A stretch of DNA of 64,000 nucleotides, taken from an uncultured cyanobacterium. Its GTDB lineage: Bacteria; Cyanobacteriota; Cyanobacteriia; Cyanobacteriales; CAWCAG01. Of this stretch, positions 31,001 through 57,450 are shown piece by piece; within the stretch, counting starts at the first letter, position 1, and each line of letters starts with the position of its first letter. A program made the position numbers and the translations under genes. Below the pieces are notes generated by a model. It was given only the letters and a program-made list of their open reading frames with translations. It made no database searches and was not told where the DNA came from. The DNA is taken from the NCBI GenBank assembly GCA_963793425.1, contig CAWCAG010000007.1, positions 1 to 64,000 on the forward strand. Direction: 5' to 3'.

Positions 31001-31278
31001 AGCCAAGTACCCTCAGAACGCCGTAAGGGTTTTTTACGATTGAGAAGGCGTAATACTGATTGAGTAAGCTGGGCAACAGGCTTAGCTATTTGCCAAGCGG
31101 AAATTAAAGGTAATTCTAAAACATCCGTCAGGGAACAGAGATCAAAAGGAGTCAAGCTTTTGACACTCATATCTTGAACCATACGAAAAGCAACACTAGA
31201 TACCTCCGCACCGGGGTGTCCTAGTTGTGCGAGTTTAATGTGGCGTTCTGCTAACCACTGCTTAATCTTGAGGCTCAT
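28096..31278 (-). CDS. NACHT-like NTPase with C-terminal pentapeptide repeats
   Basis: GESGFGKT, LLILDGLDE, FTHPSLGEFL, A(N/D)Lxx repeats, acidic tail. Confidence 0.88.
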   Translation of the reverse strand: MSLKIKQWLAERHIKLAQLGHPGAEVSSVAFRMVQDMSVKSLTPFDLCSLTDVLELPLISAWQIAKPVAQLTQSVLRLLNRKKPLRRSEGTWLAFQVAYLNALQQILEQEAAIRRPWINRTHLMREEDFDEPLIDIQLQAFLKTLRPGKLSDTQAEQALSTIGSSLLVKQMNNLAIAWFIANGTEETEAKLIAQRLINGLPGHLLTTITENTLALAQLQKFAGLGKFSERRRQQAESEDFDPRLVSDEFVINQNREEYRAQLLKNLSQPLMADPFALKDIYVPLKATTLRGDEIEVTETRRQVDLMEWAESQLEDPQTIAVVEGESGFGKTSFCQIWAAQVAQELYPEWMPVIIRLREVKLGENLEQTLDSAFPLANFRDTDGWLGNSAIPCLLILDGLDELPPHPQRFRPTPEVLLEQIFHFHRQCLASQPPRKHKIMLTAKQLTSEILNRKYKADNVFVAHNQIQRVQIQPMAQEEWRKWFVHWKNVQSPAIAQAYFSFLKQEGLFTKGPQEKPLAALVRQPWMLYILGILYRDGLLEENLLQMKLPQAKFEVYDRTCRWLLGQPYPGSNQMPELVREGLAHAYRTPEAIAHLLGGRDPEQIRADIQQLAFKIWQTGDWSWTISEKKEDISYPLPAFFFHSLPSPQAEATLPVPNPIPPIPHPNFPITFTHPSLGEFLSAEEIAQKLMRITCQVRDRYGEKSFVLNSAREVAQYLYQYLGYGILSVEMQNLLVERLWREEQKNQANFSFAILFEKLYSFYQGYCYGRWLDERLVSQAHSQLRKLGNPLNLLQFNAAVGLNIFILLCVTSRLASIPFFPCGNPEQPECFDARRLLLFMGQSMVLSHSCFGNRIRDNLTKIQLVSASLPNLVLPQANFKKANLSLAELRNASLSEANFKDADLTWTNLTGANLIKANLNNANLEGADLSGANLLGANLAGAKLKNVCLFAAKLDDANRIFATDSGALFSVEEYEKYLSSLGSGAETEEALENDFPEVKEGVTWTIESVEGEPLLPKSAWDDTSFGTATGGEDNTQALEELMPIDSEEEEDDNNDGATVML

Positions 31279-38369: not shown

Positions 38370-39077
38370 ATGACAAGGTCTAACTGGCTTAGCCAAGCGA
38401 ATAATAATCAAGTTAAACAATCTCTTTATTATCAAAATAAAGCTTCCTTAATTCAGAGAAAAAAGAAATCTCATAGTGGAAGTAAACTAATCTTTTTAAC
38501 CTTCTTGGGATTTTTGATTCTTTGCTTCCATATTGCTAGCAACAACAAAGCTTTTTTATTAAAGCAAGCTGGTTATATCTCTCCTTTAGCTATGACAGGA
38601 GGAAACCCTTATATCCGTGCCTTGATGCGGACAATTTCTGTCAGTGAAGCTAAAGATTCTAGCCCCTACACTCTTCTGTATGGTGGTGAACATATTACAG
38701 ATTTAAGCCGTCATCCTGACCAATGTATTACTATTGTCTCAGGCCCTAACGAAGGTAACTGTAGTACTGCCGCAGGAAGATACCAAATTTTAACCACAAC
38801 CTGGCAAGAAAAAGTTAGTAAATATGGACAAGGAAATACTCAAATTTATGGTTTTCAACCCTTTTCTCAAGACCAAGTAGTTTATGCTTGGTTGAGTGAT
38901 CAACAAGCCTGGGGAGAAAATATTTCTGTATTACTTCAAGAAGGAAAAGTTGAAGAAGTTTTACAAATTCTCTCTGGGACTTGGACGAGTTTAGGCTATG
39001 GCATAGAAAATAATCAGCTTACCCCTTTGTTACCGGAAATATACGAACAGGTTTTAGCAGAAGAATTAGCTAAATAG
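38370..39077 (+). CDS. Membrane-anchored lambda-type lysozyme/muramidase
   Basis: TM segment, then ALMRTISVSE, YTLLYGG, STAAGRYQIL, SQD, WTSL. Confidence 0.85.
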   Translation: MTRSNWLSQANNNQVKQSLYYQNKASLIQRKKKSHSGSKLIFLTFLGFLILCFHIASNNKAFLLKQAGYISPLAMTGGNPYIRALMRTISVSEAKDSSPYTLLYGGEHITDLSRHPDQCITIVSGPNEGNCSTAAGRYQILTTTWQEKVSKYGQGNTQIYGFQPFSQDQVVYAWLSDQQAWGENISVLLQEGKVEEVLQILSGTWTSLGYGIENNQLTPLLPEIYEQVLAEELAK

Positions 39078-39108
39078 CTTGAGGAATAAGCTTTGGTCTG
39101 AATTCAGA

Positions 39109-39258
39109 TTACCCAGAGGAAAGCTTACCAATCTCTGCTACCCAGCGTCTGCGCTCAGAATGTTCCAGCATTAAGATATCATCTAAAGACCAGTGAAAGT
39201 GTAAGGCAATAAAGGCTACCTCTTGGTACAACTCATCCAAGGGGTAGCCAAAAATTCC
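39109..39258 (-). CDS. DUF6760-like CIS ORF, probably the -1 frameshift extension of the upstream gene (absent from ORF track)
   Basis: GIFGYPLDELYQEVAFIALHFHWSLDDILMLEHSERRRWVAEIGKLSSG*; overlaps the upstream gene in the -1 frame. Confidence 0.8.
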   Translation of the reverse strand, partial: GIFGYPLDELYQEVAFIALHFHWSLDDILMLEHSERRRWVAEIGKLSSG

Positions 39259-39563
39259 CCCGACACACCCAATACCTCCTCTATTAAGTTGAGGCGTTGA
39301 TAAAAGTCTTGTAAGTAAGCAAAGTCTACTAAAAAGAGCTTTTGTAAGGTTTCTGGGGTAACAGTACTAAGCTGACCTAAAGAAGTGATTACCTGTGATA
39401 AAGCCACAAAAACCCGATCTTCTTGGTTATTAGTTTTATGGTATTTTTGGACAAAAATTTCATCTTTTCCTGTCGCAGGACGCATTTTTCCGTGGCGATG
39501 GACAACTCCTTGCTCATCTACAAAACCTTTGGGTAGAGTAAAGGAAAATTCAGTATAGGACAT
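39216..39563 (-). CDS. CIS tail-assembly-chaperone-like protein 2
   Basis: TEFSFTLPKGFVDEQGVVHRHGKMRPATGKDEI...LFLVDFAYLQDFY; paralog of the next gene. Confidence 0.8.
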   Translation of the reverse strand: MSYTEFSFTLPKGFVDEQGVVHRHGKMRPATGKDEIFVQKYHKTNNQEDRVFVALSQVITSLGQLSTVTPETLQKLFLVDFAYLQDFYQRLNLIEEVLGVSGEFLATPWMSCTKR

Positions 39564-39644
39564 ATCATTTCATTTATCATTAACCATTATTGGCGCTAGC
39601 CTTGCCGTAGGCTACATTAATCATTTTCCTAATTAGATGAATCT

Positions 39645-39983
39645 TTATTCCGTATTTTCTTGCGCTTTTACTTCTTTGGGTTGCTCGTTTTCTAACTCCA
39701 AACCATTGATTTGACGGTAGAATTTTTGCAAATAGTTGAGATCACAAGCAAAAAAGCCTTCAATTATAACTGGGCTGATATCATCCAAAGCTCCCAAGCG
39801 AGTTATAACCCTGGCGAGAATTAATACTGTAGCGTAGGCAGGATTTGATTTAACGCGAGGATCGCGCATGGGGGTGATTTCATCCATCGCCCGTGAAAGA
39901 CGCATTACCCCTTTGCGGTGGAGATTTCCTTCTGTATCGATGTAACCTTTTGGTAAAGTAAAATCAAACTCAGTTTGCAGCAT
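39645..39983 (-). CDS. CIS tail-assembly-chaperone-like protein 1
   Basis: TEFDFTLPKGYIDTEGNLHRKGVMRL..DEITPMRDPRVKSNPAY. Confidence 0.85.
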   Translation of the reverse strand: MLQTEFDFTLPKGYIDTEGNLHRKGVMRLSRAMDEITPMRDPRVKSNPAYATVLILARVITRLGALDDISPVIIEGFFACDLNYLQKFYRQINGLELENEQPKEVKAQENTE

Positions 39984-39985
39984 TT

Positions 39986-40114
39986 ATGTCAAATCCGGTT
40001 GGGTAACATAGGTTATTAGTTAGGGTAGGGAGTAGGGAGTAGGGAGTAGGCAGCAGGATTCCGTGAGCTTTTTTCTCAGATTTCATACTAGTTGTCAATA
40101 ACCGGATTTGATAT
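39986..40114. mobile_element. 129-bp MITE-like element with 15-bp terminal inverted repeats
   Basis: atgtcaaatccggtt ... aaccggatttgatat (14/15 complementary), enclosing (TAGGGAG)n. Confidence 0.6.
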
Positions 40115-40199
40115 TTTGGTAATTTTTTTATTGTGAGGAAGTAGAAGAATAAGACGATTAGCTGTTAGCCATTAGCCATTAGCCATTAGCAAAACCAGG

Positions 40200-40685
40200 C
40201 TACTTCACCCGAATAAAATGATCCACAGCTAATTCTACTTCTTCAACCTCAAACTCATTGTTACCGGCTTTAACGTCTCCTATTTTGTAACCTACAGGCC
40301 AAGCACCTTGAAAACGGAATCTCGCCCTTTCAATTGCACCTTGGTCATAAATTGTCAAGTCCCCATCTTTCCTTTGCTTACTCCACTCTCCTTCTTCTAC
40401 GGCTTGAAACCACTTCCACATAGTTGTCGAAACCGTTAAACCTCGCTTCAGAGTAATATTCTCGCTTTTGCTGTTACCAGGAAGTTTAGTACGGACAACC
40501 TTACCGTTTTTAGCTCCACCCTTGCCCCATTTTTGGGGAGTAACCTCGCAGATTTCAATAACCTCTTGGCTACGCTTAAACCCTTGACACTCCATAAAAT
40601 AGGCATCAATAGGATTTTTCGACCCATCTAATTTTAATTCTAGGTAAAAGCGGGCGCTACTAAGGATTTCAAATTGTTCTGACAT
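40200..40685 (-). CDS. CIS tail tube protein (gp19-like) 3
   Basis: FMECQGF, KLPG, NITLKRGLT, WKWF, RFRFQGAWPV, VEEVELA. Confidence 0.92.
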   Translation of the reverse strand: MSEQFEILSSARFYLELKLDGSKNPIDAYFMECQGFKRSQEVIEICEVTPQKWGKGGAKNGKVVRTKLPGNSKSENITLKRGLTVSTTMWKWFQAVEEGEWSKQRKDGDLTIYDQGAIERARFRFQGAWPVGYKIGDVKAGNNEFEVEEVELAVDHFIRVK

Positions 40686-40772
40686 AATTCACCTCCTCAA
40701 GGGAGACAATAAAATAGTAGAGGCGAAAGACCGATTCTTACAGAAAGTCTTCCGCCAATGCTCCGGCAAAGC

Positions 40773-41246
40773 TTACTTCACCCGGTGCAGATTTTCGTAA
40801 ACAATCTCTACAGTTTCTGTACCTAATTCCGTGGCACCTGCTTCTAACTTAGATGACTTGTAACTTGAAGGCATCGCTCCGGTAAAATTCCAACGAGCCG
40901 CTTCTTCTCCAGCTTGGTTATAAAGAATAATTGAGCCTGTTTTCCTTTCTCCTTTACTGCTTGTACCACCACCAGCAATAGGTTCGGAGTGGGAGTCCTC
41001 ATACCATTGCATCAATCTATTATCTTCAACAGTATCCACATACTCTATAGTTATTTTGCCGTTCTCTACCCCAGTAACAGTAGCCTGCATTTGGCTTTTG
41101 CCTCCCTTGGTAACACCAAAAGCTTTGCTATCACCAGCAGTTTGTAATTTAACTTCTATACCACTAACCTTTTTGACGATTAGATCATCTAAGCCATCTA
41201 GCTGAGCATAAAACTTAGAACAAGCAAGAATTTCACCAGCAGCCAT
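40773..41246 (-). CDS. CIS tail tube protein (gp19-like) 2
   Basis: RKTGSIILYNQAGEEAARWNFTGAMPSSY..ETVEIVYE. Confidence 0.88.
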   Translation of the reverse strand: MAAGEILACSKFYAQLDGLDDLIVKKVSGIEVKLQTAGDSKAFGVTKGGKSQMQATVTGVENGKITIEYVDTVEDNRLMQWYEDSHSEPIAGGGTSSKGERKTGSIILYNQAGEEAARWNFTGAMPSSYKSSKLEAGATELGTETVEIVYENLHRVK

Positions 41247-41295
41247 AGTTCAACTCCAAATTTAGTTCAATAATAATTATTTAATAGCTTTCCCA

Positions 41296-41769
41296 CTATT
41301 TCACACGATTAACTTGTTCGCAGAGTACAGTAAAAGTTTCCTTACAAAGGTCTTTACTATCTGCGGCGAAGTCATTGACTTTATAGGTTTTAATCCAGAT
41401 ATTGACAAGATTCCAGCGCAAAACTTCGTTATCTTCACTGTCATAACCAACGATGGAACCATTTTTACGGTTTTCACGCCACTTACCGTCGCCACCTTCG
41501 CTCTTGGGCATGGTCGTCTTTAACCAGCTATACCAGTCCAAGTCACCTTCACAGAGGTAAGTTTCTATGGTGACATCAGGGTTTTCTTCAAATCCTGCTG
41601 AGGTGGTTTGCCACATGGTCTTACCATTTTTCGTGGAAGCTAAAGGTTTTTCATGACCTGCCGTTTGTCCAGTAAAAGTTACCTCTTGGACACTAGCAAC
41701 TAGCTTATCTGTCAGACCATCTACTTCCCAATAAAATCGACTAGTTGGGGTTGGTTTTAATTCTGTCAT
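41296..41769 (-). CDS. CIS tail tube protein (gp19-like) 1
   Basis: RKNGSIVGYDSEDNEVLRWNLVNIWIKTY..ETFTVLCE. Confidence 0.88.
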   Translation of the reverse strand: MTELKPTPTSRFYWEVDGLTDKLVASVQEVTFTGQTAGHEKPLASTKNGKTMWQTTSAGFEENPDVTIETYLCEGDLDWYSWLKTTMPKSEGGDGKWRENRKNGSIVGYDSEDNEVLRWNLVNIWIKTYKVNDFAADSKDLCKETFTVLCEQVNRVK

Positions 41770-41887
41770 TGTTTAACTCCTAATCTGCAACAAAATTAAC
41801 AATTTTCTTTTGCTTAGTTGGAACAGAAGAAGGGCGACTGTTATAAGTTTTTTTTAGGTCGCTCTTCTCTATTTTATACCCTAATAA

Positions 41888-43603
41888 TTACTGGTTGGGG
41901 GCCCACTGGCTAACCCGGAAAATGACAAATTCCGCAGGACGTACAGGGCAAACACCAACTTCTACATAAAGACGACCCATCATCATGGTTTCTGGGGTGT
42001 TGAGAGTGCCGTCACACTTGACATAAAAAGATTCGCTGGGGGAAGCACCAAATAACGCTCCTTCCCGCCACAAACGCTCTAGGAATGTACCAACGGTACG
42101 CTTCACCCGCTCCCAAAGATCCATATCATTAGGTTCAAAAACAACCCATTGAGTACCAATTTCAATGGATTTTTCAATGTAGCTAATCAAACGACGCACA
42201 CTAATGTAGCGCCACTGAATATTATCTGGCTCTACCAGAGTACGAGCGCCCCAAACTTTGTAACCTCGGTTGTAATTAGCAAAGTTACGAATACAGTTAA
42301 TTCCCATGGGGTTGAGGAGTTCCTGTTCCCGCATATTGGTTTCGTAAGATAAACCAATTACGCCTCTGGGGGTGTCATTAGCTGGAGCTTTAAAAATACC
42401 GCGGTTTTGGTCAGTGCGACACCAGATTCCCATCATATGACCGCAAGGAGGAATACTAATAGGTCTTCCTGCGTTGCGAGGGTTAGGAACTTTAATCCAA
42501 GGGTAGTAAAGAGCGCCGAACATAGAACGGCGGTTGAATGCTTTTAACCATTCAGCTACGTGTTGAGGTCTTTGCTCTTCCGGTTTGACGGCTTGGTTCT
42601 CATTTTTACCCATTTTGACAGGAGGGGGATCTAAAACAACCATGCGGTAAGGAGGTCCAGGGAAGGAGTTCTCGCAGAGACTAACCATCATCTCCATGAC
42701 CCCATGTACCTGATCCAAGTCCAGCAATTCGTCTTGGTAGGCACGCATCAAGTCAGGACAAGCAATCATAGCTACTTCGTCCACTTCAAACAAACCCTGC
42801 ATCCCTTGGCGTTCATCCCGGCTACCTGTAACATCCCTAGTTAAGCGTTCAGGAGGTGCAATGTAAGGTGGTGGGGCAACTTCATAGGTTCCGTTTCCAG
42901 GTCTGCGGGAGATAGCAGATTGTCCGGTGATGGAAATATCAGCAACGCTGACATATTCAGAAGCTTCCATAACCGCAACAGCATAATCTGCTACAGCAGT
43001 CTCTACTTCTGGGTTCATGGTGAGGTTATCGTAGCGTTCTAATTCCTCATTACCGCTTCTAATCACTACGTTAAAGAATTCCCCAGTATTGATCGGGGAT
43101 TCTGCGTCTTCTGGGGCATTTTCGGGTAGGGGTTTGGGTGTACTTTCTTCAACATAAACCCGGATGCGTCCATCAGCAGAAGGTAAGGCAGGTAAATTGT
43201 CTTCTCCTTCTGGCATTTTCAGGTTAAATGCTAAACAAGGTTTGCCCCCAGGAGTAAGCATTTTAGTAGCGGTTTCTTCTGGTGCTGGTGCTGGTGTGCC
43301 TGGTAATTTTGTACCAATACTAGTTACCCAACAACGCCCTCCCCCATTCAAAAACCAACCTTGAACAGCAAAAGGAAGATAAGCATCGAAATCTGTAAAA
43401 CCATCAGAACCTGGTTTTGCAAAATACTCCCTAAACTGATCGAAGTTAGTCACCATCATTGGCTTAAAAAGTTCTGCGTCGCCCCGGACATCTTCGGTAA
43501 AACCGATAAATCCTGCTACGCTCATACTCAACCCTTCAATCGGGCGACTGCCCCGGTCTACTTCTTCAACGTAGACCCCAGGAGCAAAATAATCCAATGC
43601 CAT
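41888..43603 (-). CDS. CIS contractile tail sheath protein
   Basis: APGVYVEEVD, WFLNGGGRCWV, ALYYPW, KAPAN, VWGARTL, WRYISVRR, VFEPND, PVRPAEFVIFR. Confidence 0.96.
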   Translation of the reverse strand: MALDYFAPGVYVEEVDRGSRPIEGLSMSVAGFIGFTEDVRGDAELFKPMMVTNFDQFREYFAKPGSDGFTDFDAYLPFAVQGWFLNGGGRCWVTSIGTKLPGTPAPAPEETATKMLTPGGKPCLAFNLKMPEGEDNLPALPSADGRIRVYVEESTPKPLPENAPEDAESPINTGEFFNVVIRSGNEELERYDNLTMNPEVETAVADYAVAVMEASEYVSVADISITGQSAISRRPGNGTYEVAPPPYIAPPERLTRDVTGSRDERQGMQGLFEVDEVAMIACPDLMRAYQDELLDLDQVHGVMEMMVSLCENSFPGPPYRMVVLDPPPVKMGKNENQAVKPEEQRPQHVAEWLKAFNRRSMFGALYYPWIKVPNPRNAGRPISIPPCGHMMGIWCRTDQNRGIFKAPANDTPRGVIGLSYETNMREQELLNPMGINCIRNFANYNRGYKVWGARTLVEPDNIQWRYISVRRLISYIEKSIEIGTQWVVFEPNDMDLWERVKRTVGTFLERLWREGALFGASPSESFYVKCDGTLNTPETMMMGRLYVEVGVCPVRPAEFVIFRVSQWAPNQ

Positions 43604-43701
43604 GATTCAGCAATCCTCCAGATGTAGAATATCTTTACCTTAAATTTATTAATCCCCCAAGTTTAGTAAACAGCCGCATTAGGGCAAATTTCTTAAACTT
43701 T

Positions 43702-44271
43702 TCAAGAATGTTTACCCAACTTAATCAATTTCTTTTGGGAAAAAGGAGATTTACTTACCAGTTTTGAGGTAGGGTTAGGCTGATAACTTAGGGGAACTGT
43801 AACTGTTACATAGAGAGCAGGACGCAAGGGAACTCCTAAAGCACTCCAAAAAGTAGCAGTGTCTTTTATTTCTTGGGCAGAAACTTTTAAGGGCAAGGAG
43901 CCACGACCCTGTAATCCAGGAGCTAGAAGTTCTTCTGGCAGAGAGCGATAATTCCCTAAGAGGCTTAGGGCTTCGCTAAGGAGATGTTGTTCACCTAGAG
44001 TAGTGCGATCCCAAGCTGTGATCAGGAAAGATAAATCAAACCAGATAAAAGAGCAATCTTGATCGGCATTTGACTCCTTTGCTTGCCCCGCATAATTTAC
44101 CTTAGTATTTTCTCTGATGTCATAGCAGTAAAGGTTTAACCTAGGGCTAAAATACTGTTCTAGGGCTGCTGGACGCTCAAAATCAATTTGTTCTGTCGTA
44201 ATTGAGGGGCTACCCTCAGCTAATATTTCTGCCAGAGTTTGAGTAACAGTATTAATCATAAGTAAAGCCAT
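43702..44271 (-). CDS. Pvc16/DUF4255 CIS cap (sheath terminator) protein
   Basis: LNLYCYDIREN, LSFLITAW, EQHLL, FWSALGVPLRPALYVTVTVP; start 44271 or 44259. Confidence 0.88.
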   Translation of the reverse strand: MALLMINTVTQTLAEILAEGSPSITTEQIDFERPAALEQYFSPRLNLYCYDIRENTKVNYAGQAKESNADQDCSFIWFDLSFLITAWDRTTLGEQHLLSEALSLLGNYRSLPEELLAPGLQGRGSLPLKVSAQEIKDTATFWSALGVPLRPALYVTVTVPLSYQPNPTSKLVSKSPFSQKKLIKLGKHS

Positions 44272-44448
44272 CTGATAAATTAGGCTATACGTAGCATTCA
44301 GTCTAAACAAGGGATTTGGTCATAACCATTAGACTTTGGTCTAAAGCTGAGCCTGGGGGAGTAGGGGCAAGTATTAATTTTTTCTAACTCTTGGGAGATG
44401 TTATTCCTATATTGAGTTAAATTAAAGAACAAAAAGCGATAAAGCATA

Positions 44449-45603
44449 ATGCAATTATCAGCTCTTCCTTTGCCAGAAAAAAGCCCATTGCTAGATAGTA
44501 ATGTTGTTGCAACCTTCCCTGAAAGCTTGAATAGTTTCTGCCAAGGGCAACTAGAACTAATGGTCAACCAACTGCCTTCCCAGGCGGCTTGGATCATTGG
44601 GCGTTCTCAAAGTGCAACTCAAAAACATTATTTAGCTTATTGGTGCAAAGAAACAGCCAGCTTAAACGAACAAAATCTTATTTATTTAGAATCAGAGGCT
44701 TGGTTAAAACAACTTGAATTTCTTTGGCAAGATCAGTTGAGAATTAGTCCTAGCTTGGAAATATGTGACCTTGTTTATCTATTCCCTTTGCTGGATGAAC
44801 AAAACTCTTCTGCTTCTGATCAACCTCAGTTAGATGAATACCTATTAATCTGGGCTGAACAACCTCTATCATTAGATCAACAAGAGAAAATCCAGCAACA
44901 GGCAGCATTCATTGCTGATTATTTGTCTCTATCTCGCCAGTGCCATAGACAACAAGAACAACTCAAACTCTATCAGCAAATCTTGCAACAAGGAGAACAT
45001 CAGTTAAGAAATCCCCTTGCTATGATTGGTTTATATGCTGAGAACCTTTATTTAAGATTGCCAGAGGGGGCGTTGCGTCAGCAAGCTAAGGTAGTGAGGG
45101 AAACAGTCAAAGACCTTAGCGCCAACCTCAAAAATCTTTTGCATTGTTCTCAACAAAACCAACTTCAATTATCTCATGCAAATTTTCAGGTTATTCTAGC
45201 TGAGACTATTCAGATTTTGGAACCTCAATTAGAAGCCAAAGGAATTACCCTTAACATTCCTCAAAACGCTTTAACTTTGACCGTAGATAGTTGGAAAATC
45301 AAACAAGTTTTTGCCAACATCCTCAGCAATGCCGTAGATTTTAGCCCAGTAGGGGGAATGATAACCGTGAACTGGCAGCTATTTGGCAAAGAGTTATTAG
45401 TAGAAATTGTTGATCAAGGGCCAGGACTTACTCCAGAAGTCCTCAAACACGTATTCACACCTTTTTATTCTCAAAAAGAAGGAGGAACAGGTTTAGGATT
45501 AGCCATTGCCAAAAAAAATATTCTCGCTCATCAAGGTAGCATCTGGGTAGAAAACTTACCCAATGGTGGGGCGCAATTTTCTTTTACCCTGCCCCGTTTG
45601 TAA
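44449..45603 (+). CDS. Cytoplasmic sensor histidine kinase
   Basis: HQLRNPL, NILSNA, DQGPG, FTPFY, GTGLGLAI; no TM. Confidence 0.92.
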   Translation: MQLSALPLPEKSPLLDSNVVATFPESLNSFCQGQLELMVNQLPSQAAWIIGRSQSATQKHYLAYWCKETASLNEQNLIYLESEAWLKQLEFLWQDQLRISPSLEICDLVYLFPLLDEQNSSASDQPQLDEYLLIWAEQPLSLDQQEKIQQQAAFIADYLSLSRQCHRQQEQLKLYQQILQQGEHQLRNPLAMIGLYAENLYLRLPEGALRQQAKVVRETVKDLSANLKNLLHCSQQNQLQLSHANFQVILAETIQILEPQLEAKGITLNIPQNALTLTVDSWKIKQVFANILSNAVDFSPVGGMITVNWQLFGKELLVEIVDQGPGLTPEVLKHVFTPFYSQKEGGTGLGLAIAKKNILAHQGSIWVENLPNGGAQFSFTLPRL

Positions 45604-45697
45604 AAAAAATCAGGAAAAGTTAAGTGAAAGTTTGAAGTTAAAAAGACGAAAAATTTTTCTTGATAACTTCTTCGCAAAAAAGTTTTAGGGGTAATTT

Positions 45698-46393
45698 ATG
45701 ATAACTACAGCAACCCAGTCAATCTCAATTTTATTAGTAGACGACCAGCCTCTATTTCGCCAGGGGCTGCGTACCTTATTGAACTTTTATGGCGAAAGTG
45801 GTTCTTTACAATTTAATATCATTGGTGAAGCGGCAACTGTAGAGCAAGCTGTTAAACTGACAATTCAACAGAATCCTGCCTTAATTTTGTTGGATTTAGA
45901 ATTAGCTCAAGGTAGCGGTATTCAGGCCCTCCTCCGTTTAAGGGAGTTATCCTATAAAGGAAGAGTATTGGTTCTTTCTGCCCATCAGGAAGACGAATGG
46001 GTCTTCAAGGCCATGCAAGCAGGGGCCAAAGGCTATGTGTTTAAAGATCACCTAGCTAGCCAGCTTTGCGAAGCCATTTCTACAGTCATGCGCGATGAAG
46101 TCTATTTAGCCCCAGAGGTGGCCACCAGCTTTTTTAGGATGTTTCACTTCTATGCAGGCAATTCTTTTAAAACAGCTTCTAACCTCAATTTAACGGAAAG
46201 AGAACAAGAAGTCTTACACTGGTTAGTGCAGGGTTCTTCTAATGATCAAATTGCTCGTAATTTGCACGTCACCGTAGCCACAGTTAAAGCTCATTTAACT
46301 TCTATTTTTGATAAGTTAAGTGTCAGAAGCCGAACCCAAGCAATCATTAAAGCTTTAAAACTGGGGCTAGTAGGGGCAACCATCGTACCCTAG
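45698..46393 (+). CDS. NarL/LuxR family response regulator
   Basis: LVDDQ, LLDL, GYVFK; LTEREQEVL..TVKAHLTSIFDKL. Confidence 0.95.
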   Translation: MITTATQSISILLVDDQPLFRQGLRTLLNFYGESGSLQFNIIGEAATVEQAVKLTIQQNPALILLDLELAQGSGIQALLRLRELSYKGRVLVLSAHQEDEWVFKAMQAGAKGYVFKDHLASQLCEAISTVMRDEVYLAPEVATSFFRMFHFYAGNSFKTASNLNLTEREQEVLHWLVQGSSNDQIARNLHVTVATVKAHLTSIFDKLSVRSRTQAIIKALKLGLVGATIVP

Positions 46394-46486
46394 CAGCCCT
46401 ATTCTACATTTTGAGGAAGTGATGAAGAGAATAAAACTATTCCCCATTCCCCACTCCCTACTCCCTACTCCCCACTCCCTTCTGAA

Positions 46487-47785
46487 ATGAGTAATTATCT
46501 AGCAATTGCCACCGTAACGGCTGTTCTACAAAGAACTTTAATTAAGGCAATAGAGGCAGATATAGAGGGCGTAAGAGTAACCACCAGCCGCCCTGATAAC
46601 CCTGGTGGTGGCATACCAGAAACCAGAGTTAATCTTTATCTTTATCAAGCTGAACTTAATGAAGTGTGGCGCAATAGTGCCAACATGAGAGCAAATCGTA
46701 ATCGTCAAACAGAGTCTGCGAAGCAAAATCGTACTGCTTTTGATCTTCACTATATGATTAGTTTTTATGGTAATGATGCAGAATTAAAGCCTCAACGCCT
46801 GATGGGGAGTGCAATACAAGCTCTGACAGACAAACCGATTATTACTACAGAGATGATTCGAGGAGCAACTAGTGACTCGACCTTTGCTTACTTAGCAGAT
46901 AATACTCTGGTTCAACAAGTAGAACAAATTAAATTCATTCCCTTAGATTTATCTGTAGAAGATTTATCAAAAATCTGGTCAATCTTTTTTCAAACTCCCT
47001 ATACTTTATCCATTGCCTATCGTGTCACAGCCGTAGTTATTGAAGGACATAAACCGGCCCAGAAAGCTTTGCCAGTTACAGAAAGAAGCACCGGGGGTAT
47101 AGCACCTTTTCCTAACCAGCCAATTATTGAAAGTATAGAATCAGAAGGCGGTAGATTTGAACCAATTTTGGCCAGTAGTGCCTTAGTAATTAAAGGACAA
47201 AATTTACAAGGTCAAATTACTCAGATTTTAGTGGGGGATTTTGAAGCGACACCAACAGAGGTAAATGATGCTGAAGTAAAATTTGACCTTGGTTTGTTAC
47301 CTAGTCCAGCTTTTAAAGCCGGGGTACAAAGTTTGCAAATAATTCATCGCTTTAACCCCGGTGAAGTTCCCCAAATTATTACGCCTCAAACTAAATCTAT
47401 GACTGTTGTCGAGTCTAATGTTATGCCTTTTGTGGTACGTCCTATCATCAAAGAAATTAAGGTAGAAAATTTACGAGGGCGTCATGATGAACTCCGTTCT
47501 GGAGATTTAGTTATTCAAACTGATGTCACTGTGGGTAAGGAGCAGCGCATACTTCTATCCTTGAATGAATGGTCAACTGATGATCCGGCAACTTATATGT
47601 TTAAAAGTCCTCACTCTCGTTCTGAGGATACTCAAACTATTACCGTACCTATTAACCAAGTTCAAGCCGGACAATATTTAGTTCGCCTTCATATTGATGG
47701 GGCAGAAAGTCCTCTCAAAAAAGATACCGACCCTGATAGTGATACTTTTGATTTATATGTTGCCCCTCAAGTTTTAATTAGTTAA
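46487..47785 (+). CDS. Pvc16/DUF4255 protein with C-terminal beta-rich (IPT/TIG-like) extension
   Basis: MSNYLAIATVTAVL, VNLYLYQ, DLHYMISFYG, LSKIWS..FQTPY.LSIAY; C-terminal GQYLVRLHIDGAES. Confidence 0.85.
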   Translation: MSNYLAIATVTAVLQRTLIKAIEADIEGVRVTTSRPDNPGGGIPETRVNLYLYQAELNEVWRNSANMRANRNRQTESAKQNRTAFDLHYMISFYGNDAELKPQRLMGSAIQALTDKPIITTEMIRGATSDSTFAYLADNTLVQQVEQIKFIPLDLSVEDLSKIWSIFFQTPYTLSIAYRVTAVVIEGHKPAQKALPVTERSTGGIAPFPNQPIIESIESEGGRFEPILASSALVIKGQNLQGQITQILVGDFEATPTEVNDAEVKFDLGLLPSPAFKAGVQSLQIIHRFNPGEVPQIITPQTKSMTVVESNVMPFVVRPIIKEIKVENLRGRHDELRSGDLVIQTDVTVGKEQRILLSLNEWSTDDPATYMFKSPHSRSEDTQTITVPINQVQAGQYLVRLHIDGAESPLKKDTDPDSDTFDLYVAPQVLIS

Positions 47786-47808
47786 CCTTGAGAATAATTA
47801 GTAAGCTT

Positions 47809-48033
47809 ATGTACCGTATTAGAATTTCTGGTTTAGGTTTTATTCATAAACAATGGCAAGATGAAGAACCAAGATTTTGTAGCACTAAAACTAAAGCAAA
47901 AACTTGGAAAAGTCTGAAGGGAGCAATGGATTTTGGTAACAAAAAGCTTACTCCTAAAGTTAAAATTGGTTGGGAGTTATGGCAAGAAGCAGATGATGGA
48001 TTAACTCCTGTGTTTCGCCCTCGACCTAGATGA
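47809..48033 (+). CDS. Small basic hypothetical protein
   Basis: ORF 47788..48033, likely ATG at 47809. Confidence 0.55.
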   Translation: MYRIRISGLGFIHKQWQDEEPRFCSTKTKAKTWKSLKGAMDFGNKKLTPKVKIGWELWQEADDGLTPVFRPRPR

Positions 48034-48070
48034 TGGAGAGCTAGAGAACTAGGGGAGTAATAAGTGATAA

Positions 48071-48337
48071 ATGTTAAATGATGAGGTGAGGAAAATGGAA
48101 GATCAAGATGTAAATGAAGAACAAGATGAACAAGAAAAGGAAGAGGAAGTTCTTAGTTTAAATAAGTTAACTGAATTAGGTAATCAAGCTATTAGCGATC
48201 GCCTAATTTTTGGTCATGGCTATCGGGGCGGTAAATATGAAATTCTTCGCCAGGGGGAAGTTTTGTTAATGACTCCTCAAGAAGCTGAAAGTTATTTGCA
48301 GGAGTTAATTGATGGAAGATCCCAGAAAAGCACCTAA
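48071..48337 (+). CDS. Small acidic hypothetical protein
   Basis: 88-aa ORF. Confidence 0.6.
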   Translation: MLNDEVRKMEDQDVNEEQDEQEKEEEVLSLNKLTELGNQAISDRLIFGHGYRGGKYEILRQGEVLLMTPQEAESYLQELIDGRSQKST

Positions 48338-48360
48338 ATTATCTTGATGGTGAGAGAATT

Positions 48361-49689
48361 TTAAGCCAACTGTTTAGGTAAAGAGGTATTGCTTTGATTT
48401 GTGGCCCTAACCCTTTCAGAATTCTTCGCGTAAACCCTTTCTACTACCTCTGCTAAACGTTTCATTGCTGTAGCAATTTCTTCAGGAGTGGCAGTTAAGC
48501 TAATGCGAATACATTGTTGTTTGTGTGACCATTGTTCGTGCAAACCAGGGAAGAAAGGACTGCCGGGAACAACAATGACTCCTACTTCTTTTAATTCTTG
48601 ATAAAGTTCCCAATCTGTTAATGGTAAATCCTCTAACCACAGCCAAGCAAAAATAGCCCCTTCGCCACGGTGCAAAAACCACGGTAAGTCTTGGGGAAGG
48701 GCCGCATCTAAGGTGTTTTCTAAGATGGCTAATTTGTTTTGGTAATGGGGACGAATTACTGATGTAGCAATTTCTGCTAAAGCGCCACTAGCGATCGCCT
48801 TAGTAGCGATCGCCTGTCCGTAGCGAGAAGAATGGAGGCAGAGGTTGGTTTGGAAACATTCTAAAACTTGAATTAATTGCGGATCACCAATGGCTACCCC
48901 TACCCTTTCCCCTGGTAATCCGGCTTTGGAGAGGCTAAGGCAATGGATGATGTTGCTGCCAAATTGGGGTGTCATAGCCGTAAAGTTTAGGGCTGGGTAG
49001 GGGATTGCGTAGGCAGAGTCGATTAAAACTGGTACGTCATGGGGAGCAGCTAAGTCAGTGATTTTCTGCACTTCTGCGTCGCTGAGGACGTTGCCTGTGG
49101 GGTTGCAAGGACGGGAAAAGATTACGCAGCCTGTGGTTTCATCAATGACAAGTCGGCTAAAATCTGGGCGGTATTTGAAGCGATGTTCTTGGTCGTTAAT
49201 TTCTAAGTTGGGTTTGTAGGCAATAATTGTGTCTGGGGTTAAGCTAACTCCCCCATATCCGGTGTAATCAGGGCTTAGGGGTAGAACAACTCGTTTTAAT
49301 TTTCCGGCGGGAGTGTAGCCAGCTAAGGCATTAGCTGCGTAAAAGTAAATAGATTGGGAACCAGGGGTGATGAGAATGTTTCTGTCGGTGAGGTTCAACC
49401 CATAACGTTGGTTAAAATCATTAGCGATCGCCTCAATTAAAGGAGTATATCCTTGAGAAGAGCCATAACGCCCCACTACTTCACCATATTCAGGGCTGGC
49501 TAGCAATTGTGCGTTACAATCTCGCCACAATTGTTCTACTTCTGGCAAAATTACCGGGTTGCCAGCACTAAGATTGATAAAATCCCTCCCTTGACCTGCT
49601 CGCAAGGTTTCGATAATATCTTTCATAATTGCCCGAACCCCTGTGAGAGTGGACATTTGCTTACCAATTTTTGATAGGTGAGGATTCAT
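48361..49689 (-). CDS. avtA: Valine--pyruvate transaminase
   Basis: LSAGNP, SRPCNPTGNV, DSAY, SLSKAGLPGERVG. Confidence 0.92.
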   Translation of the reverse strand: MNPHLSKIGKQMSTLTGVRAIMKDIIETLRAGQGRDFINLSAGNPVILPEVEQLWRDCNAQLLASPEYGEVVGRYGSSQGYTPLIEAIANDFNQRYGLNLTDRNILITPGSQSIYFYAANALAGYTPAGKLKRVVLPLSPDYTGYGGVSLTPDTIIAYKPNLEINDQEHRFKYRPDFSRLVIDETTGCVIFSRPCNPTGNVLSDAEVQKITDLAAPHDVPVLIDSAYAIPYPALNFTAMTPQFGSNIIHCLSLSKAGLPGERVGVAIGDPQLIQVLECFQTNLCLHSSRYGQAIATKAIASGALAEIATSVIRPHYQNKLAILENTLDAALPQDLPWFLHRGEGAIFAWLWLEDLPLTDWELYQELKEVGVIVVPGSPFFPGLHEQWSHKQQCIRISLTATPEEIATAMKRLAEVVERVYAKNSERVRATNQSNTSLPKQLA

Positions 49690-56316: not shown

Positions 56317-57450
56317 TTATGGATCTCTCCAGACAAACTCTCCTTTTTTATTGATATAGCCACAATTACTAACCCTAAGACAGGCCCGAGCTAATTCCCC
56401 TTGAAAAGGATCTCCATAATTAAATTTCATCGGAATAGCAATCTCCCCTATTTTATCAATGTAGCCCCAAAGATTTCCGTCTTTACTAACTCCAGCTAGT
56501 CCCTCTGAGAAGGGTTGTGTTTCTGCAAACTCTGCCTTTATAACCATTTCTCCTATTTTATCAATGTAACCCCACTTTCCTTCTGTAAGATACTGGGCCA
56601 TTGATGCTGGCACAGACCCTGTTTTCACTTGAGCTAACCCCTCGGAGAACTTTCTAACAACATAAAACTGAGGTTCAATAACTATTCTGCCTCTCTTGTC
56701 CATATAGCCACGTCCTTGATCTGTAACAATTGGAGCTAATCCTTCGTCAAAGCCTGAAGGAATCGATGTTATTTTTCTTGAAAAACGGAAAGCTGGTTTG
56801 CCTCGCTTATCAATAAAGCCAATCCAAGTCGGCGCTCCCTCCCTTCCATCTATAAGGGCTAACCCTTCTTGAAAATCTTCAGCTATGAATATTGTTGCTG
56901 GAATTACCATCTCACCAGCTTTATTGATGTAGCCCATATCACCCTGCTCTAGTTTGACAGCAGCTAAACCGTCAGAAAAGTTGCCAGAATAAACAGGGTC
57001 GAACTGTGGAGGAACCACTAGCCCACCAACTTTATTGATGTATCCTAACTTATCATCAATGATTATCCCGGCCATTCCTTCTGAGAAATTACGTACGCTA
57101 TCAAACTGGGGAGTAATGGCTATTTTGCCTGTGGTATCAATGTAACCCCATTTACCTTCAAGTTCTTGATTAAATGGTGCTAGTCCTCCAGAAAAACTTC
57201 TGACTTGGTAAAACTGAGGTTTAATAACTATCTCACCTGTTGCGTCAATATAACCCCACTGATCATCTACCTCAACAGGGTATAGCTCTAAGCTAGGTTC
57301 AGTTTCTGCTTTGTTCTCTACTGTACTACTGGATAGTGAAGTAGCTTGGGGTGAACTACAAGCGCTTAGAGTTGAGGCTACCAGAAAGCATGAGATAGCA
57401 ATCTTCAGAAAATACTTGAGTTGATAAAGATTGTGCATGAATGCCCTCAT
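56317..57450 (-). CDS. WG/KWG-repeat lipoprotein, candidate immunity protein
   Basis: Lipobox LSAC; about eight repeats of WGYIDxxGxxxIxPQF...FSEGLA. Confidence 0.88.
   Translation of the reverse strand: MRAFMHNLYQLKYFLKIAISCFLVASTLSACSSPQATSLSSSTVENKAETEPSLELYPVEVDDQWGYIDATGEIVIKPQFYQVRSFSGGLAPFNQELEGKWGYIDTTGKIAITPQFDSVRNFSEGMAGIIIDDKLGYINKVGGLVVPPQFDPVYSGNFSDGLAAVKLEQGDMGYINKAGEMVIPATIFIAEDFQEGLALIDGREGAPTWIGFIDKRGKPAFRFSRKITSIPSGFDEGLAPIVTDQGRGYMDKRGRIVIEPQFYVVRKFSEGLAQVKTGSVPASMAQYLTEGKWGYIDKIGEMVIKAEFAETQPFSEGLAGVSKDGNLWGYIDKIGEIAIPMKFNYGDPFQGELARACLRVSNCGYINKKGEFVWRDP

Follow-up and report, generated by a model that had tools for sequence, protein, structure and literature searches.

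A probable shaft module of a dispersed, Streptomyces-like contractile injection system in an uncultured cyanobacterium

Gene content of the locus

The locus lies at nt 39109–47785 of the analysed stretch of DNA (64,000 nucleotides, hereafter the window). From the ORF list and Pfam, the minus strand carries a Pvc16-type cap, a sheath, three gp19-type tubes, two paralogous chaperones and a DUF6760 ORF; on the plus strand are a histidine kinase, a response regulator of the GerE/LuxR type and a further Pvc16-type cap, this one with Ig-like domains. Every ORF of the module is intact. The minus-strand genes make up a sheath operon, and the kinase, the GerE regulator, the second cap (cap 16B) and two small ORFs make up a divergent operon. 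The same minus-strand run had been listed in a preliminary description, and the ORFs together with the Pfam, PHROG and fold matches bear it out.

Gene cap 16A (nt 43702–44310, minus strand) encodes a Pvc16_N tail-terminator protein (Pfam Pvc16_N 91.1 bits, match from residue 21). The ORF as listed has 202 residues and a TTG start; translation probably begins at an internal ATG some 13 codons further in. Its nearest solved relative is Streptomyces Cis16 (9gts_0A, 62.6 bits, E 4e-16). The sheath gene (nt 41888–43603, minus strand) encodes a Cis2-like protein of 571 residues (Phage_sheath_1C 63.9 bits, Phage_sheath_1 43.9 bits), the sole match in a whole-genome sheath search. It matches Streptomyces Cis2 (8bky 349 bits, 8bl4 341 bits) and 9ezm (282 bits) over the full length. 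The strong Shine-Dalgarno sites noted earlier are found as GGAG(G) motifs upstream of the sheath and all three tube genes, the strongest being GAGGAGG ahead of tube C, but no such motif precedes the two chaperone genes.

Upstream of cap 16A, comparison of the cap16A–kinase intergenic regions identified a conserved 10-mer, AAAGTCTAAT (nt 44328–44337, minus strand), which contains a -10-like TCTAAT and is present in all 11 regions compared. It may serve as a promoter element for the sheath operon. The genome has 10 copies, as many as chance predicts, and none of them is close to another CIS locus; its absence from the other modules leaves co-regulation by the response regulator unsupported.

The kinase (nt 44449–45603, plus strand, 384 residues; HATPase_c 91.9 bits, HisKA weak) is divergent from the sheath operon. 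Its orthologues, with 35–49% identity, adjoin the module in 11 of 20 loci and also in Acaryochloris marina. The response regulator (nt 45698–46393, plus strand, 231 residues; Response_reg 77.5 bits, GerE 71.3 bits) has orthologues of 59–72% identity in the neighbouring position. A GerE regulator with a kinase upstream is a reported feature of eCIS loci (PMC8213781).

Cap 16B (nt 46487–47785, plus strand) is a second Pvc16_N protein, of 432 residues (149.1 bits), with two C-terminal Ig/FN3-like domains (weak TIG match). A PDB sequence search gave no match. In its AF2 model (pLDDT 71), the N-domain resembles the cap chains of AlgoCIS (7adz_0A, TMt 0.56), Anabaena (7b5i_AA, 0.54) and PlPVC1 (9qgn_A), and the C-terminal half resembles tandem FN3/Ig receptors. 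Both Pvc16_N genes of the genome, the two caps described earlier, lie inside the window. Two small ORFs of 81 and 88 residues (nt 47788–48337, plus strand) follow cap 16B, and their position is conserved: orf88 homologues (50–63% identity) lie behind cap 16B in loci L040, L041 and L045, and both ORFs do in A. marina (L076; 59% and 58%). Pfam and PHROG searches gave no family match for either.

The Pfam scan covered 57 of the 60 window ORFs of at least 100 residues, with six nested ORFs left out. Among the scanned ORFs no spike, baseplate, tape measure, fibre, capsid or T6SS membrane gene was found, in agreement with the preliminary description. Its statement that no AAA ATPase is present holds for the Cis15 type, the nearest match being at C7:299 kb, but not for AAA genes at large, as a housekeeping-type ClpB (nt 8199–10820) and another AAA-like gene (nt 19663–21453) are in the window. 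The window also contains a gene missing from the earlier list, at nt 57501–59006 (minus strand), encoding a 501-residue eCIS_core (DUF4157) protein (102.7 bits), a candidate cargo whose C-terminal 199 residues have no Pfam match. Separately, a lysozyme-like gene (nt 38370–39077; PHROG endolysin, E 4e-16) adjoins the module; it is not conserved beside the module in the 20 loci compared.

Tubes, chaperones and the DUF6760 frame

The three tube paralogues are all on the minus strand: A (nt 41296–41769, 157 residues, pI 4.9; Phage_T4_gp19 53.1 bits), B (nt 40773–41246, 157 residues, pI 5.1; 76.0 bits) and C (nt 40200–40685, 161 residues, pI 7.7; 103.9 bits). Their identity to each other and to the tube on contig C5 is 21–33%. 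In the tree, tube A belongs to an orthologue clade of 15 rows (SH-aLRT 95) and the tube B group is its sister, the joint A/B clade also having SH-aLRT 95. Clade C (SH-aLRT 96) is found in 21/21 genomes of the tree, and in every locus tube C comes last of the tubes. All 21 tree genomes retain one or more A/B-type genes and one or more of the C type. This constant co-retention argues against redundant alternatives and for non-redundant, putatively structural roles of the two clades.

The sole solved match of tube A is Streptomyces Cis1a (8bl4_v, 30.3 bits), which is also the best of tube B (29.2 bits). Tube C matches Alg1 (36.8 bits), All3324 (30.8), Pvc1 (26.3) and Afp1 (22.2). With A/B pointing to Cis1a and C to Alg1/Cis1/Pvc1, all at 20–37 bits, the bulk-tube paralogue cannot be picked from these matches. 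That the bulk tube is made of one clade and special rings of the other is a tentative reading with a little under an even chance; co-polymerization of the clades in mixed rings or layers is somewhat unlikely, and a role other than these is unlikely.

T6SS Hcp paralogues serve as interchangeable alternatives. The three tubes might likewise each form a complete tube dedicated to its own set of cargoes, and the nine eCIS_core genes and several ATPases of the genome, together with the differing charge of the paralogues, would suit such use. However, all three are in one operon, in fixed order and with their own Shine-Dalgarno sites, and the retention of both types in every tree genome fits obligatory joint use better. 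We regard interchangeability as improbable.

Chaperone paralogue 1 (TAC1; nt 39645–39983, minus strand, 112 residues) matches the tail assembly chaperone family phrog_508 (E 0.0024) and has no match in Pfam. In alignment it is highly conserved among the module proteins (64–76% identity). Its AF2 model (pLDDT 88), compared with 48,161 chains, gave YqbN (3klu, Z 6.8), the HK97 tail assembly chaperone (2ob9, Z 5.8) and 3fgx (Z 5.5) as the top three, after which Z drops to 4.4 and 3.0. The ESM Atlas gave phage tail assembly clusters, which serve as a lead only. Chaperone paralogue 2 (TAC2; nt 39216–39563, minus strand, 115 residues) matches phrog_508 (E 1.2e-4) and Phage_TAC_7 (22.3 bits, under the 25-bit cut-off), and is 40% identical to TAC1 (E 8e-24). 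The two are predicted to be tail assembly chaperones, the family matches being below the curated cut-offs and the fold Z scores middling.

The 3′ end of the TAC2 gene contains a conserved G-run, GGGGGAA (nt 39261–39255, minus strand). The DUF6760 frame on the same strand occupies nt 39109–39240 as an ORF, or nt 39109–39261 if read from the G-run (DUF6760 51.7 bits, cut-off 27; weak Phage_P2_GpE match, E 0.066). In 14/14 loci compared, its frame is -1 with respect to TAC2. Of 101 sequences, 73 have a single copy of the motif GGGGGAR-N5-RGCTAYCC. At 64 of these 73 sites a zero-frame stop follows 2–3 codons past the GGG; the -1 frame is open without ATG, GTG or TTG at 40 and contains a possible start codon at the other 33. 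We propose that DUF6760 may be a -1 frameshift extension of TAC2, by analogy with P2 E+E′; with possible start codons at 33 sites, it may instead be initiated separately.

In the phages P2 (E / E+E′) and lambda (G / GT), the tube gene is followed by a small chaperone gene, whose 3′ end is overlapped in the -1 frame by a second ORF, and then by the gene for a long protein. The same arrangement of chaperone, -1 overlapping ORF and long protein gene is seen here, and the chaperone has YqbN and the HK97 chaperone as its closest structural neighbours. The differences are two chaperone paralogues instead of one, a conserved slip site G GGG GAR that departs from the canonical X XXY YYZ heptamer, and a long protein of S/T/P/E/Q-rich repeats in place of an obvious helical tape measure.

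The remainder of the machine and its distribution in cyanobacteria

The host genome is metagenome-assembled, in 9 contigs, and linkage of the modules is inferred from single-copy counts and co-occurrence. It contains one gp25 and one Baseplate_J gene, both on C9 with a Tail_P2_I gene adjoining. They belong to the sole wedge module of the genome (gp25, J, P2_I-like, DUF4159, Cache-HAMP and WD40). The sole spike module is on C5 and consists of tube5, a repeat protein of about 1,335 residues, a Cis7-like initiator (CIS_tube) and VgrG. Tube5 is the fourth gp19 tube of the genome and scores 48.5 bits against Streptomyces Cis1b, a tube initiator (PMC12237407). The one intact PAAR gene is elsewhere on C5. 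The repeat gene is split by a frame change, which could reflect a genuine defect or an artefact of the assembly, and an IS1 transposase lies directly 3′ of the spike module. Several Cis15-like ATPases are present, adjoining eCIS_core genes at C5:135–137.5 kb and C1:151–153 kb and within about 3.3 kb of one at C7:522–527 kb; the eCIS_core genes number nine, including that of the window. The suggestion of a dispersed system in the preliminary description is supported, and the baseplate and spike genes, whose absence anywhere in the genome it had equated with a relic locus, are present.

Among 401 genomes sampled from the phylum, 26 have a full-length sheath orthologue, and in 25 of them a J orthologue is present too. 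The module, with three tubes, two chaperones, DUF6760, the kinase-regulator pair and the second cap, recurs across cyanobacteria, and its gene order is retained across families at 31–79% protein identity. Three consecutive tubes are found in 67 of 71 named loci, the Cache-HAMP membrane-type protein is conserved within the wedge module, and the wedge module is within 10 kb of the sheath in just 4 of 34 loci with full flanks. One genome (G144) is near-contiguous: Cache-HAMP genes, DUF4159, I, J and gp25 are followed by eCIS_core genes, by an AAA ATPase, orf88 and cap16B, and then by sheath, A, B, C, TAC1, TAC2, tube5, repeat protein, tube7 and VgrG.

The architecture, first taken as unusual, is thus a recurrent one. 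It corresponds in part to a described subtype: dbeCIS (Chen et al. 2019, Table S2) includes "split" loci of subtype IId from eight cyanobacterial genomes. One of these is A. marina MBIC11017, which is syntenic with the window. The A. marina sheath is 79% identical to that of the window; the order is eCIS_core, orf88, orf81, cap16B, regulator and kinase, then cap16A, sheath, A, B, C, TAC1 and TAC2; and the three-way dispersal is the same (J ~6.498 Mb, VgrG ~5.977 Mb, sheath ~0.27 Mb). At the level compared, nothing of substance differs. The dbeCIS entry gives subtype and "split" status only, and the accessible portion of its text and supplement does not describe tube triplication, chaperones, frameshift or regulators for the split loci. 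In the literature we found no account of two non-redundant tube clades, of a conserved signal for -1 frameshifting from chaperone 2 into DUF6760, or of sensor-type genes in the wedge module.

Relationship to known systems and proposed assembly

In sequence, the nearest relative of the sheath, cap and baseplate J is the Streptomyces cytoplasmic CIS (dbeCIS subtype IId) rather than the Anabaena thylakoid system (tCIS). For the sheath, cap 16A and J, the best relatives with a solved structure all come from the CIS of S. coelicolor and S. venezuelae (CIS-Sc; 384.7 bits for J). Both systems have a one-ORF VgrG and a single J gene, no Afp13-type fibre was seen, and Cis1b corresponds to tube5. The Streptomyces genes form a contiguous 19-ORF cluster with a single cap protein and just two tube homologues, Cis1a as bulk and Cis1b as initiator (PMC10066040, PMC12237407). 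The system described here has tube5 in addition to three Cis1-like tubes, a further cap that bears Ig-like domains, a kinase-regulator pair and several dispersed loci. Two chaperone paralogues and DUF6760 may be further differences, unless their counterparts are among the Streptomyces ORFs of "unknown function".

The particle could also work as in Anabaena sp. PCC 7120, with its baseplate in thylakoid membranes and firing on cell lysis. The cyanobacterial host, the conserved Cache-HAMP protein, the fold match of cap 16B to 7b5i_AA and the bipartite cap, which Anabaena has as Cis16A/B (PMC8894136), are in keeping with this. DUF4157 cargo candidates are likewise common to both systems (PMC8894136). 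The lineage differs, however: the sheath scores 163 bits against All3325, in the C-terminal part only, versus 349 for Streptomyces, J scores 24 bits against All3317, and Anabaena has one contiguous cluster (all3313–all3327) with one Cis1 tube. Sequence does not tell whether the particle acts in the cytoplasm, at a membrane or after release. An Anabaena-like mode is quite improbable.

A decaying CIS or prophage-tail remnant that makes no particles would account for the scattered genes, the repeat gene in two frames, the neighbouring IS1 transposase, and the sheaths in two pieces in G014 and G092 (stop codons inside the match being recorded for G014 only). Against this relic reading, which is very unlikely, the module ORFs are intact, the structural parts are each present once and open, the order is kept across families, and sheath and J co-occur. 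That the same genome has one intact spike module, a wedge module, PAAR, Cis15-like ATPases and nine eCIS_core genes argues that the locus is not a relic.

In P2-like tails, the sheath and tube genes are followed by the chaperone, its frameshifted form, the long protein and the hub. A prophage tail or R-type tailocin would share that order, the phage-like chaperone fold and the adjoining lysozyme-like gene, but it is hardly credible in view of the two caps with Pvc16_N, a core eCIS domain (PMC8213781), the Streptomyces CIS parts as nearest solved relatives, the nine eCIS_core genes and several Cis15-like ATPases, the lack of capsid, portal, terminase and integrase genes in the window and the flanks of the other modules, and a lysozyme-like gene not kept beside the module in 20 loci.

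The window therefore very probably holds the "shaft" module of one complete, Streptomyces-like (IId) contractile injection system, spread over at least four structural loci and separate ATPase/effector loci. The wedge and spike modules would form the baseplate, and tube5 and tube7 the initiator rings. A -1 slip on G GGG GAR would give a chaperone 2–DUF6760 fusion, and the chaperone pair with this fusion may keep the long repeat protein in place as a ruler during polymerization of the tube rings. The sheath would polymerize around the tube; cap 16A would shut the tube, and cap 16B the sheath, with its Ig-like domains on display. The Cis15-like ATPases may load DUF4157-tagged cargo, and the kinase-regulator pair may control the sheath operon. 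The locus is a further example of a catalogued kind, uncharacterised at the bench and common in cyanobacteria.

The shaft and regulator genes

Judging by its genes, the locus at 39109..47785 is the predicted shaft-and-regulator module of a complete, dispersed contractile injection system (CIS) of the Streptomyces type (probably subtype IId of the dbeCIS catalogue). The gene list of the preliminary description was borne out, coordinates included, by an ORF listing and by Pfam scans of the window. On the minus strand, listed as transcribed, lie a Pvc16_N cap gene (cap 16A, 43702–44310, Pfam 91.1 bits), the sheath gene (41888–43603, Pfam match over cut-off), three tube genes matching Phage_T4_gp19, namely tube A (41296–41769, 53.1 bits), tube B (40773–41246, 76.0 bits) and tube C (40200–40685, 103.9 bits), two small putative chaperone genes, paralogue 1 (39645–39983) and paralogue 2 (39216–39563), and a 43-residue DUF6760 ORF (39109–39240, 51.7 bits). 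GGAG-type ribosome-binding motifs precede the sheath and every tube gene. The plus-strand genes begin 138 bases away from the cap 16A gene and encode, in order, a histidine kinase, a GerE response regulator, a second Pvc16_N protein (cap 16B, 432 residues, 149.1 bits) and two small ORFs. The sheath, the gp19-type tube and the Pvc16/DUF4255 terminator, which are traits of the eCIS superfamily, are all encoded in the window with Pfam matches over the cut-offs.

The window was also said to be without spike, baseplate, fibre, capsid and T6SS membrane genes, and none was found in the 57 of its 60 ORFs of at least 100 residues that were scanned. An eCIS_core (DUF4157) gene at 57501–59006 on the minus strand had been overlooked; no Pfam family was detected in the C-terminal ~300 residues of its product. 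It is followed on the same strand by a gene for a WG_beta_rep protein with a lipoprotein-like N-terminus (56317–57450). A housekeeping-type ClpB is encoded in the window as well. Three tandem leucine-rich-repeat genes (1–2944), a BLUF-adenylate/guanylate cyclase (26155–27258) and a NACHT-pentapeptide STAND protein (28096–31278) show no link to the CIS.

Two candidates were rejected, one as a gene and one as a part of the system. The first, a 99-residue ORF at 44298–44597, matches no family and runs across the space between the divergent operons into the start of the kinase gene. The second, at 38370–39077 on the plus strand, adjoins the module; its 235-residue product has a hydrophobic N-terminal segment and resembles lysozymes over part of its length (PHROG endolysin, E 4e-16), with no match in Pfam. 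It has no counterpart beside the module in 20 fetched loci and is not counted as a part of the system.

Rfam detected two tRNAs in the window and nothing else, and both the promoters (17 found, 18.2 expected) and the terminators (12 found, 9.8 expected) predicted over 38900–48500 are at chance level. The 10-mer AAAGTCTAAT at 44328–44337, which contains the −10-like TCTAAT, occurs in 11 of 11 cap 16A-kinase intergenic regions from different genomes. As a shared regulatory motif it does not hold, with a chance frequency genome-wide and no occurrence near the wedge, spike or cargo loci. A Pfam scan of the N-terminal region of the kinase found no family.

No structure in the PDB matches cap 16B by sequence. 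In a model built from 12 sequences (pLDDT 71), the N-terminal domain resembles the cap chains of AlgoCIS, Anabaena CIS and Photorhabdus PVC (TM 0.37–0.56 on the target), and the C-terminal half resembles tandem FN3/Ig domains. The Anabaena cap is described as two proteins, one closing the tube and one closing the sheath (PMC8894136), and the Streptomyces cap as a single protein (PMC12237407).

Baseplate, spike and candidate cargo genes elsewhere in the genome

The assembly comprises 5.28 Mb in 9 contigs, with 98.6% completeness and 2.0% contamination, and the window is the first 64 kb of one of them (C7). Whole-assembly family searches gave the counts of gp25, Baseplate_J (J), tubes, Pvc16_N, sheath and PAAR. 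One gp25 and one J gene lie together on contig C9 near 199–201 kb. The gp19 tubes number four, three in the window and one (tube5) on contig C5 at 326 kb. There is a single sheath gene, and both Pvc16_N genes of the genome are within the window. The only PAAR gene is on C5 at 587 kb; its frame is open and its product is 48% identical to the PAAR following VgrG in another sampled genome (G029).

Pfam scans of the flanks resolved two further modules. The wedge module on C9 contains gp25, J, Tail_P2_I, DUF4159, dCache-HAMP and WD40 genes. The spike module on C5 contains tube5 (gp19), two ORFs rich in S, T, P, E and Q repeats, tube7 (CIS_tube) and VgrG, in which Phage_GPD and Phage_base_V are joined in one ORF of 599 residues. 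The J, gp25, VgrG-like spike and LysM/CIS_tube initiator genes each occur once, on C9 and C5, and not in the window. Even were the contigs abutting, the distance from the sheath would be no less than ~236 kb to the wedge genes and no less than ~365 kb to the spike genes. The preliminary description had suggested a dispersed CIS, to be taken for a relic if baseplate and spike genes were missing everywhere. The genome search found J, gp25, spike, initiator and PAAR, with modules on three contigs; the system is thus dispersed, and the relic can be set aside.

A repeat gene of ~1,335 residues (9843–13851 of L009, the C5 flank; C5 ~326.8–330.9 kb) separates tube5 from tube7 and is placed where a tape-measure gene would be expected. 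It is broken into ORFs of 352 and 614 residues by a frame change near L009:10860, which could be an assembly error in the repeats or a real break. Its counterparts elsewhere are of about 1,050 to 1,400 residues. Directly 3′ of the spike module is an IS1-family transposase gene (L009:17213–17707), which may be a trace of the rearrangement that parted the modules.

The genome has nine eCIS_core genes, at dispersed sites on C1, C5 and C7. A WHD+AAA ATPase, which is Afp15-like and lies beside cap 16B in genome G144, has homologues at no fewer than four places in the genome and none in the window. Two of these homologues adjoin eCIS_core genes and a third is within ~3.3 kb of one. The sites where the Cis15-like WHD+AAA and eCIS_core genes meet (C5, 135–137.5 kb; C1, 151–153.5 kb; C7, 522–527 kb) are far from any structural module and look like dispersed loader-cargo pairs.

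The wedge genes are accompanied by further accessories. The P2_I-like baseplate gene is followed by DUF4159 and a WD40 protein of ~710 residues in four of four genomes (the present one, G000, and G144, G029 and G384), and a Cache/HAMP or Tll0287/HAMP membrane-type protein is encoded between the two in three of the four. In the present genome the DUF4159, dCache-HAMP and WD40 genes occupy 6248–11623 of L007, the C9 flank. We infer that these products could anchor or trigger the machine.

Tube classes and the putative chaperone pair

The three window tubes display 21–33% identity with one another and with the tube on C5. A maximum likelihood tree (quick search, LG+G4) was computed for 63 tube proteins of 21 genomes, with six tube5 sequences as the root. 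The final tube of each locus falls into clade C (SH-aLRT 96), which is represented in 21 of 21 genomes, and all other tubes fall into clade A/B (SH-aLRT 95). Within A/B, clade A (15 rows, SH-aLRT 95) stands apart from a B-like group that includes the first tube of two-tube loci. Each of the 21 genomes retains at least one gene per clade, in unchanged order. This retention of both clades in every tree genome points to non-redundant roles for A/B and C. Tubes A and B are acidic and find the Streptomyces bulk tube Cis1a as sole or best solved match, at ~30 bits. Tube C is near neutral in charge and matches Alg1, Anabaena Cis1, Pvc1 and Afp1 at 22–37 bits. By such matches to solved structures, either clade could form the bulk tube.

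As for tube5, the 140-residue Streptomyces chain 9gtp_a scores 48.5 bits and Afp5 43.9 bits. The tube-initiator layers in Streptomyces consist of Cis1b and Cis7, according to PMC12237407. By analogy, tube5 and tube7 would be the initiator pair of the present system, to which the window adds three further tubes.

The two chaperone paralogues share 40% identity (E 8e-24) and match the PHROG tail-assembly-chaperone family weakly (E 0.0024 for paralogue 1 and 1.2e-4 for paralogue 2). An AF2 model of paralogue 1 was built from 27 aligned sequences (pLDDT 88). Compared with 48,161 chains, it comes nearest to YqbN at Z 6.8, then to the HK97 tail assembly chaperone at Z 5.8 and to 3fgx at Z 5.5; the chains ranked after these reach 4.4 and 3.0. 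Two of the same three chains lead a Foldseek search with this model; the best E is a weak 0.067, and no match reaches E ≤ 0.001.

In 14 of 14 loci, DUF6760 lies in the −1 frame with respect to paralogue 2. Where the two meet, 73 of 101 sequences have a single copy of a 20-base motif, GGGGGAR-N5-RGCTAYCC. The 101 comprise the window, 20 loci and a further 80, and short contigs are among the 28 that lack the motif. In the window its G-run, GGGGGAR, is at 39255–39261 on the minus strand, at the end of chaperone 2, and the same site is present in the 72 other loci. The chaperone frame reads Gly-Glu at the motif and meets a stop within one more codon at 64 of the 73 sites. The −1 frame reads Gly-Gly-x-x-Gly/Ser-Tyr-Pro and continues into the conserved DUF6760 peptide; at 40 of the 73 sites this open frame has no ATG, GTG or TTG ahead of that peptide. 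This is most simply explained by a programmed −1 frameshift, in which the glycine tRNA slips on the G-run and a predicted chaperone 2-DUF6760 fusion results.

Chaperone fusions made by frameshift are found in phages P2 (E+E′) and lambda (GT). As in phages of this type, the second ORF overlaps the 3′ end of the first in the −1 frame, and this is conserved in relatives. The canonical slippery heptamer X XXY YYZ, however, is replaced here by the conserved site G GGG GAR. In a slip on this site the P-site glycine tRNA would re-pair perfectly, and the A-site would need a G-U pair. Neither DUF6760 nor a frameshift in a CIS chaperone is reported in the literature searched.

It is possible, if on the whole unlikely, that these features all belong to one scheme. 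The inner tube of this cyanobacterial lineage would then consist of two paralogue classes, encoded here by three genes and obligatorily retained together, which would form mixed or zoned rings and no homopolymer. A P2-like chaperone pair, with one member extended by a non-canonical −1 slip on G GGG GAR, would act on a repeat-protein ruler of ~1,300 residues. Genes for membrane and sensor proteins (Cache-HAMP, WD40, DUF4159) would be coupled to those of the wedge and would make firing dependent on a signal, and the whole machine, ATPase-cargo pairs included, would form a dispersed regulon rather than an operon.

Relatives and distribution in cyanobacteria

Relatedness was assessed by sequence search against all solved structures. 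The sheath matches 8bky (349 bits) and 8bl4 (341 bits) over its full length, then 9ezm (282 bits). The best solved match of cap 16A is 9gts_0A (62.6 bits), and J scores 384.7 bits with 9gtp_1K versus 24 bits with Anabaena All3317. Entries 8BKY and 8BL4 are cited by the Streptomyces CIS paper, 9GTP by the CisA paper and 9EZM by the haloarchaeal CIS paper. By these scores the closest solved relatives of the sheath, cap 16A and J are Streptomyces CIS parts. Close kinship of core parts with the Anabaena thylakoid-anchored CIS was not found; besides the low J score, the match between the window sheath and Anabaena sheath All3325 (163 bits) is confined to the C-terminal part of the former.

The Streptomyces systems were assigned to dbeCIS subclade IId (PMC10066040), for which the criteria are a single afp11, an afp8 in one ORF with gp27 and gp5 parts, and the presence of PAAR (PMC6899500). 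The genes here fit, with one J, a single-ORF VgrG (afp8) containing gp27 and gp5 parts, and an intact PAAR. Membership in IId also finds indirect support in the Streptomyces origin of the best solved J and in a syntenic Acaryochloris marina locus that is listed as IId. The system differs from Streptomyces CIS-Sc, which has one Cis16 cap, two tube homologues (Cis1a and Cis1b) and a contiguous cluster; the present genome has two Pvc16_N genes, tube5 in addition to three Cis1-like tubes, and modules spread over three contigs.

Full-length sheath orthologues (60–79% identity, >700 bits) are present in 26 of 401 sampled genomes of the phylum, the present one included, and in two further genomes of the 401 the sheath gene is in pieces. 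J orthologues occur in 26 genomes; of the 26 whose sheath gene is intact, 25 are among them, as is one of the two in which it is broken. Sheath and J share a contig in seven genomes. The distance between them is 11–23 kb in five of these, 51 kb in the sixth and 1.49 Mb in the seventh; in four more genomes, the sheath lies 51–265 kb from the nearest contig end and J is on another contig. After the sheath, the 20 fetched loci have three tubes (14 loci) or two (6 loci), then two chaperone genes and, in most, DUF6760. The kinase-regulator pair is nearby in 11 of the 20 and cap 16B in 12 or 13.

A scan of a species-level genome collection identified 185 stretches encoding a relative. The best 80 of the 185 are 67–83% identical, and all taxon-named ones among these 80 are cyanobacteria. 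Tubes were counted by script in the 71 of the 80 loci with at least 2.5 kb downstream, giving three tubes in 63, five in four, four in two, two in one and none in one. On inspection, the last four odd-count loci have three tubes each, the miscounts being caused by a split ORF, a neighbouring tube5, a long gap and a start that overlaps. The Spirulina records L117–L119 and L122 have five tubes after the sheath; the one locus inspected reads A-B-A-B-C, which is a further duplication of the A/B pair. For 34 loci the 10-kb flanks are complete; these contain wedge genes in 4, tube7 or VgrG in 17, tube5 alone in 8, and none of these in 9.

The dispersed arrangement, which had been taken for an unusual architecture, is thus the norm in a widespread cyanobacterial lineage. 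It has been catalogued before: of the 13 "split" eCIS-like loci given by Chen et al. (2019), eight are cyanobacterial IId, including that of A. marina MBIC11017 (PMC6899500). In this strain the sheath is 79% identical and the gene order (L076) is that of the window, including the two small ORFs after cap 16B, with eCIS_core nearby. On its 6.50-Mb chromosome J is at 6.498 Mb, VgrG at 5.977 Mb and the sheath near 0.27 Mb. Class IId regions in filamentous cyanobacteria are mentioned by Vladimirov et al. (2023), and GerE regulators, sometimes with an upstream kinase, and DUF4157 are given as eCIS features by Geller et al. (2021; PMC8213781). A match to a described subtype therefore holds in part, through the syntenic A. 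marina locus catalogued as split IId, whereas the tube clades, the frameshift signal and the second cap are not described in the accessible text of that catalogue. Nor did the literature searched, with bioRxiv supplements out of reach, describe the tube clades, a chaperone frameshift or a second cap for such loci.

The system is thus of a kind already known, a catalogued and widespread cyanobacterial lineage that is experimentally untouched, and the window adds one more member. To our knowledge, IId systems have been studied in Streptomyces only; there they function within the cell that makes them and influence its development. A sister lineage of these systems is widespread in cyanobacteria, as the 26 of 401 genomes and the 185 stretches attest. 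Because its modules are usually encoded separately, cluster-based surveys will under-call the lineage or see only fragments of it. It offers testable departures from the Streptomyces model in the extra tubes, the bipartite cap, the chaperone pair with its frameshift signal, the two-component system and the wedge sensor genes. The same arrangement is found in cultured, sequenced strains such as A. marina MBIC11017 and Leptolyngbya sp. PCC 6406, and a heteromeric or partitioned tube is therefore open to direct study at the bench.
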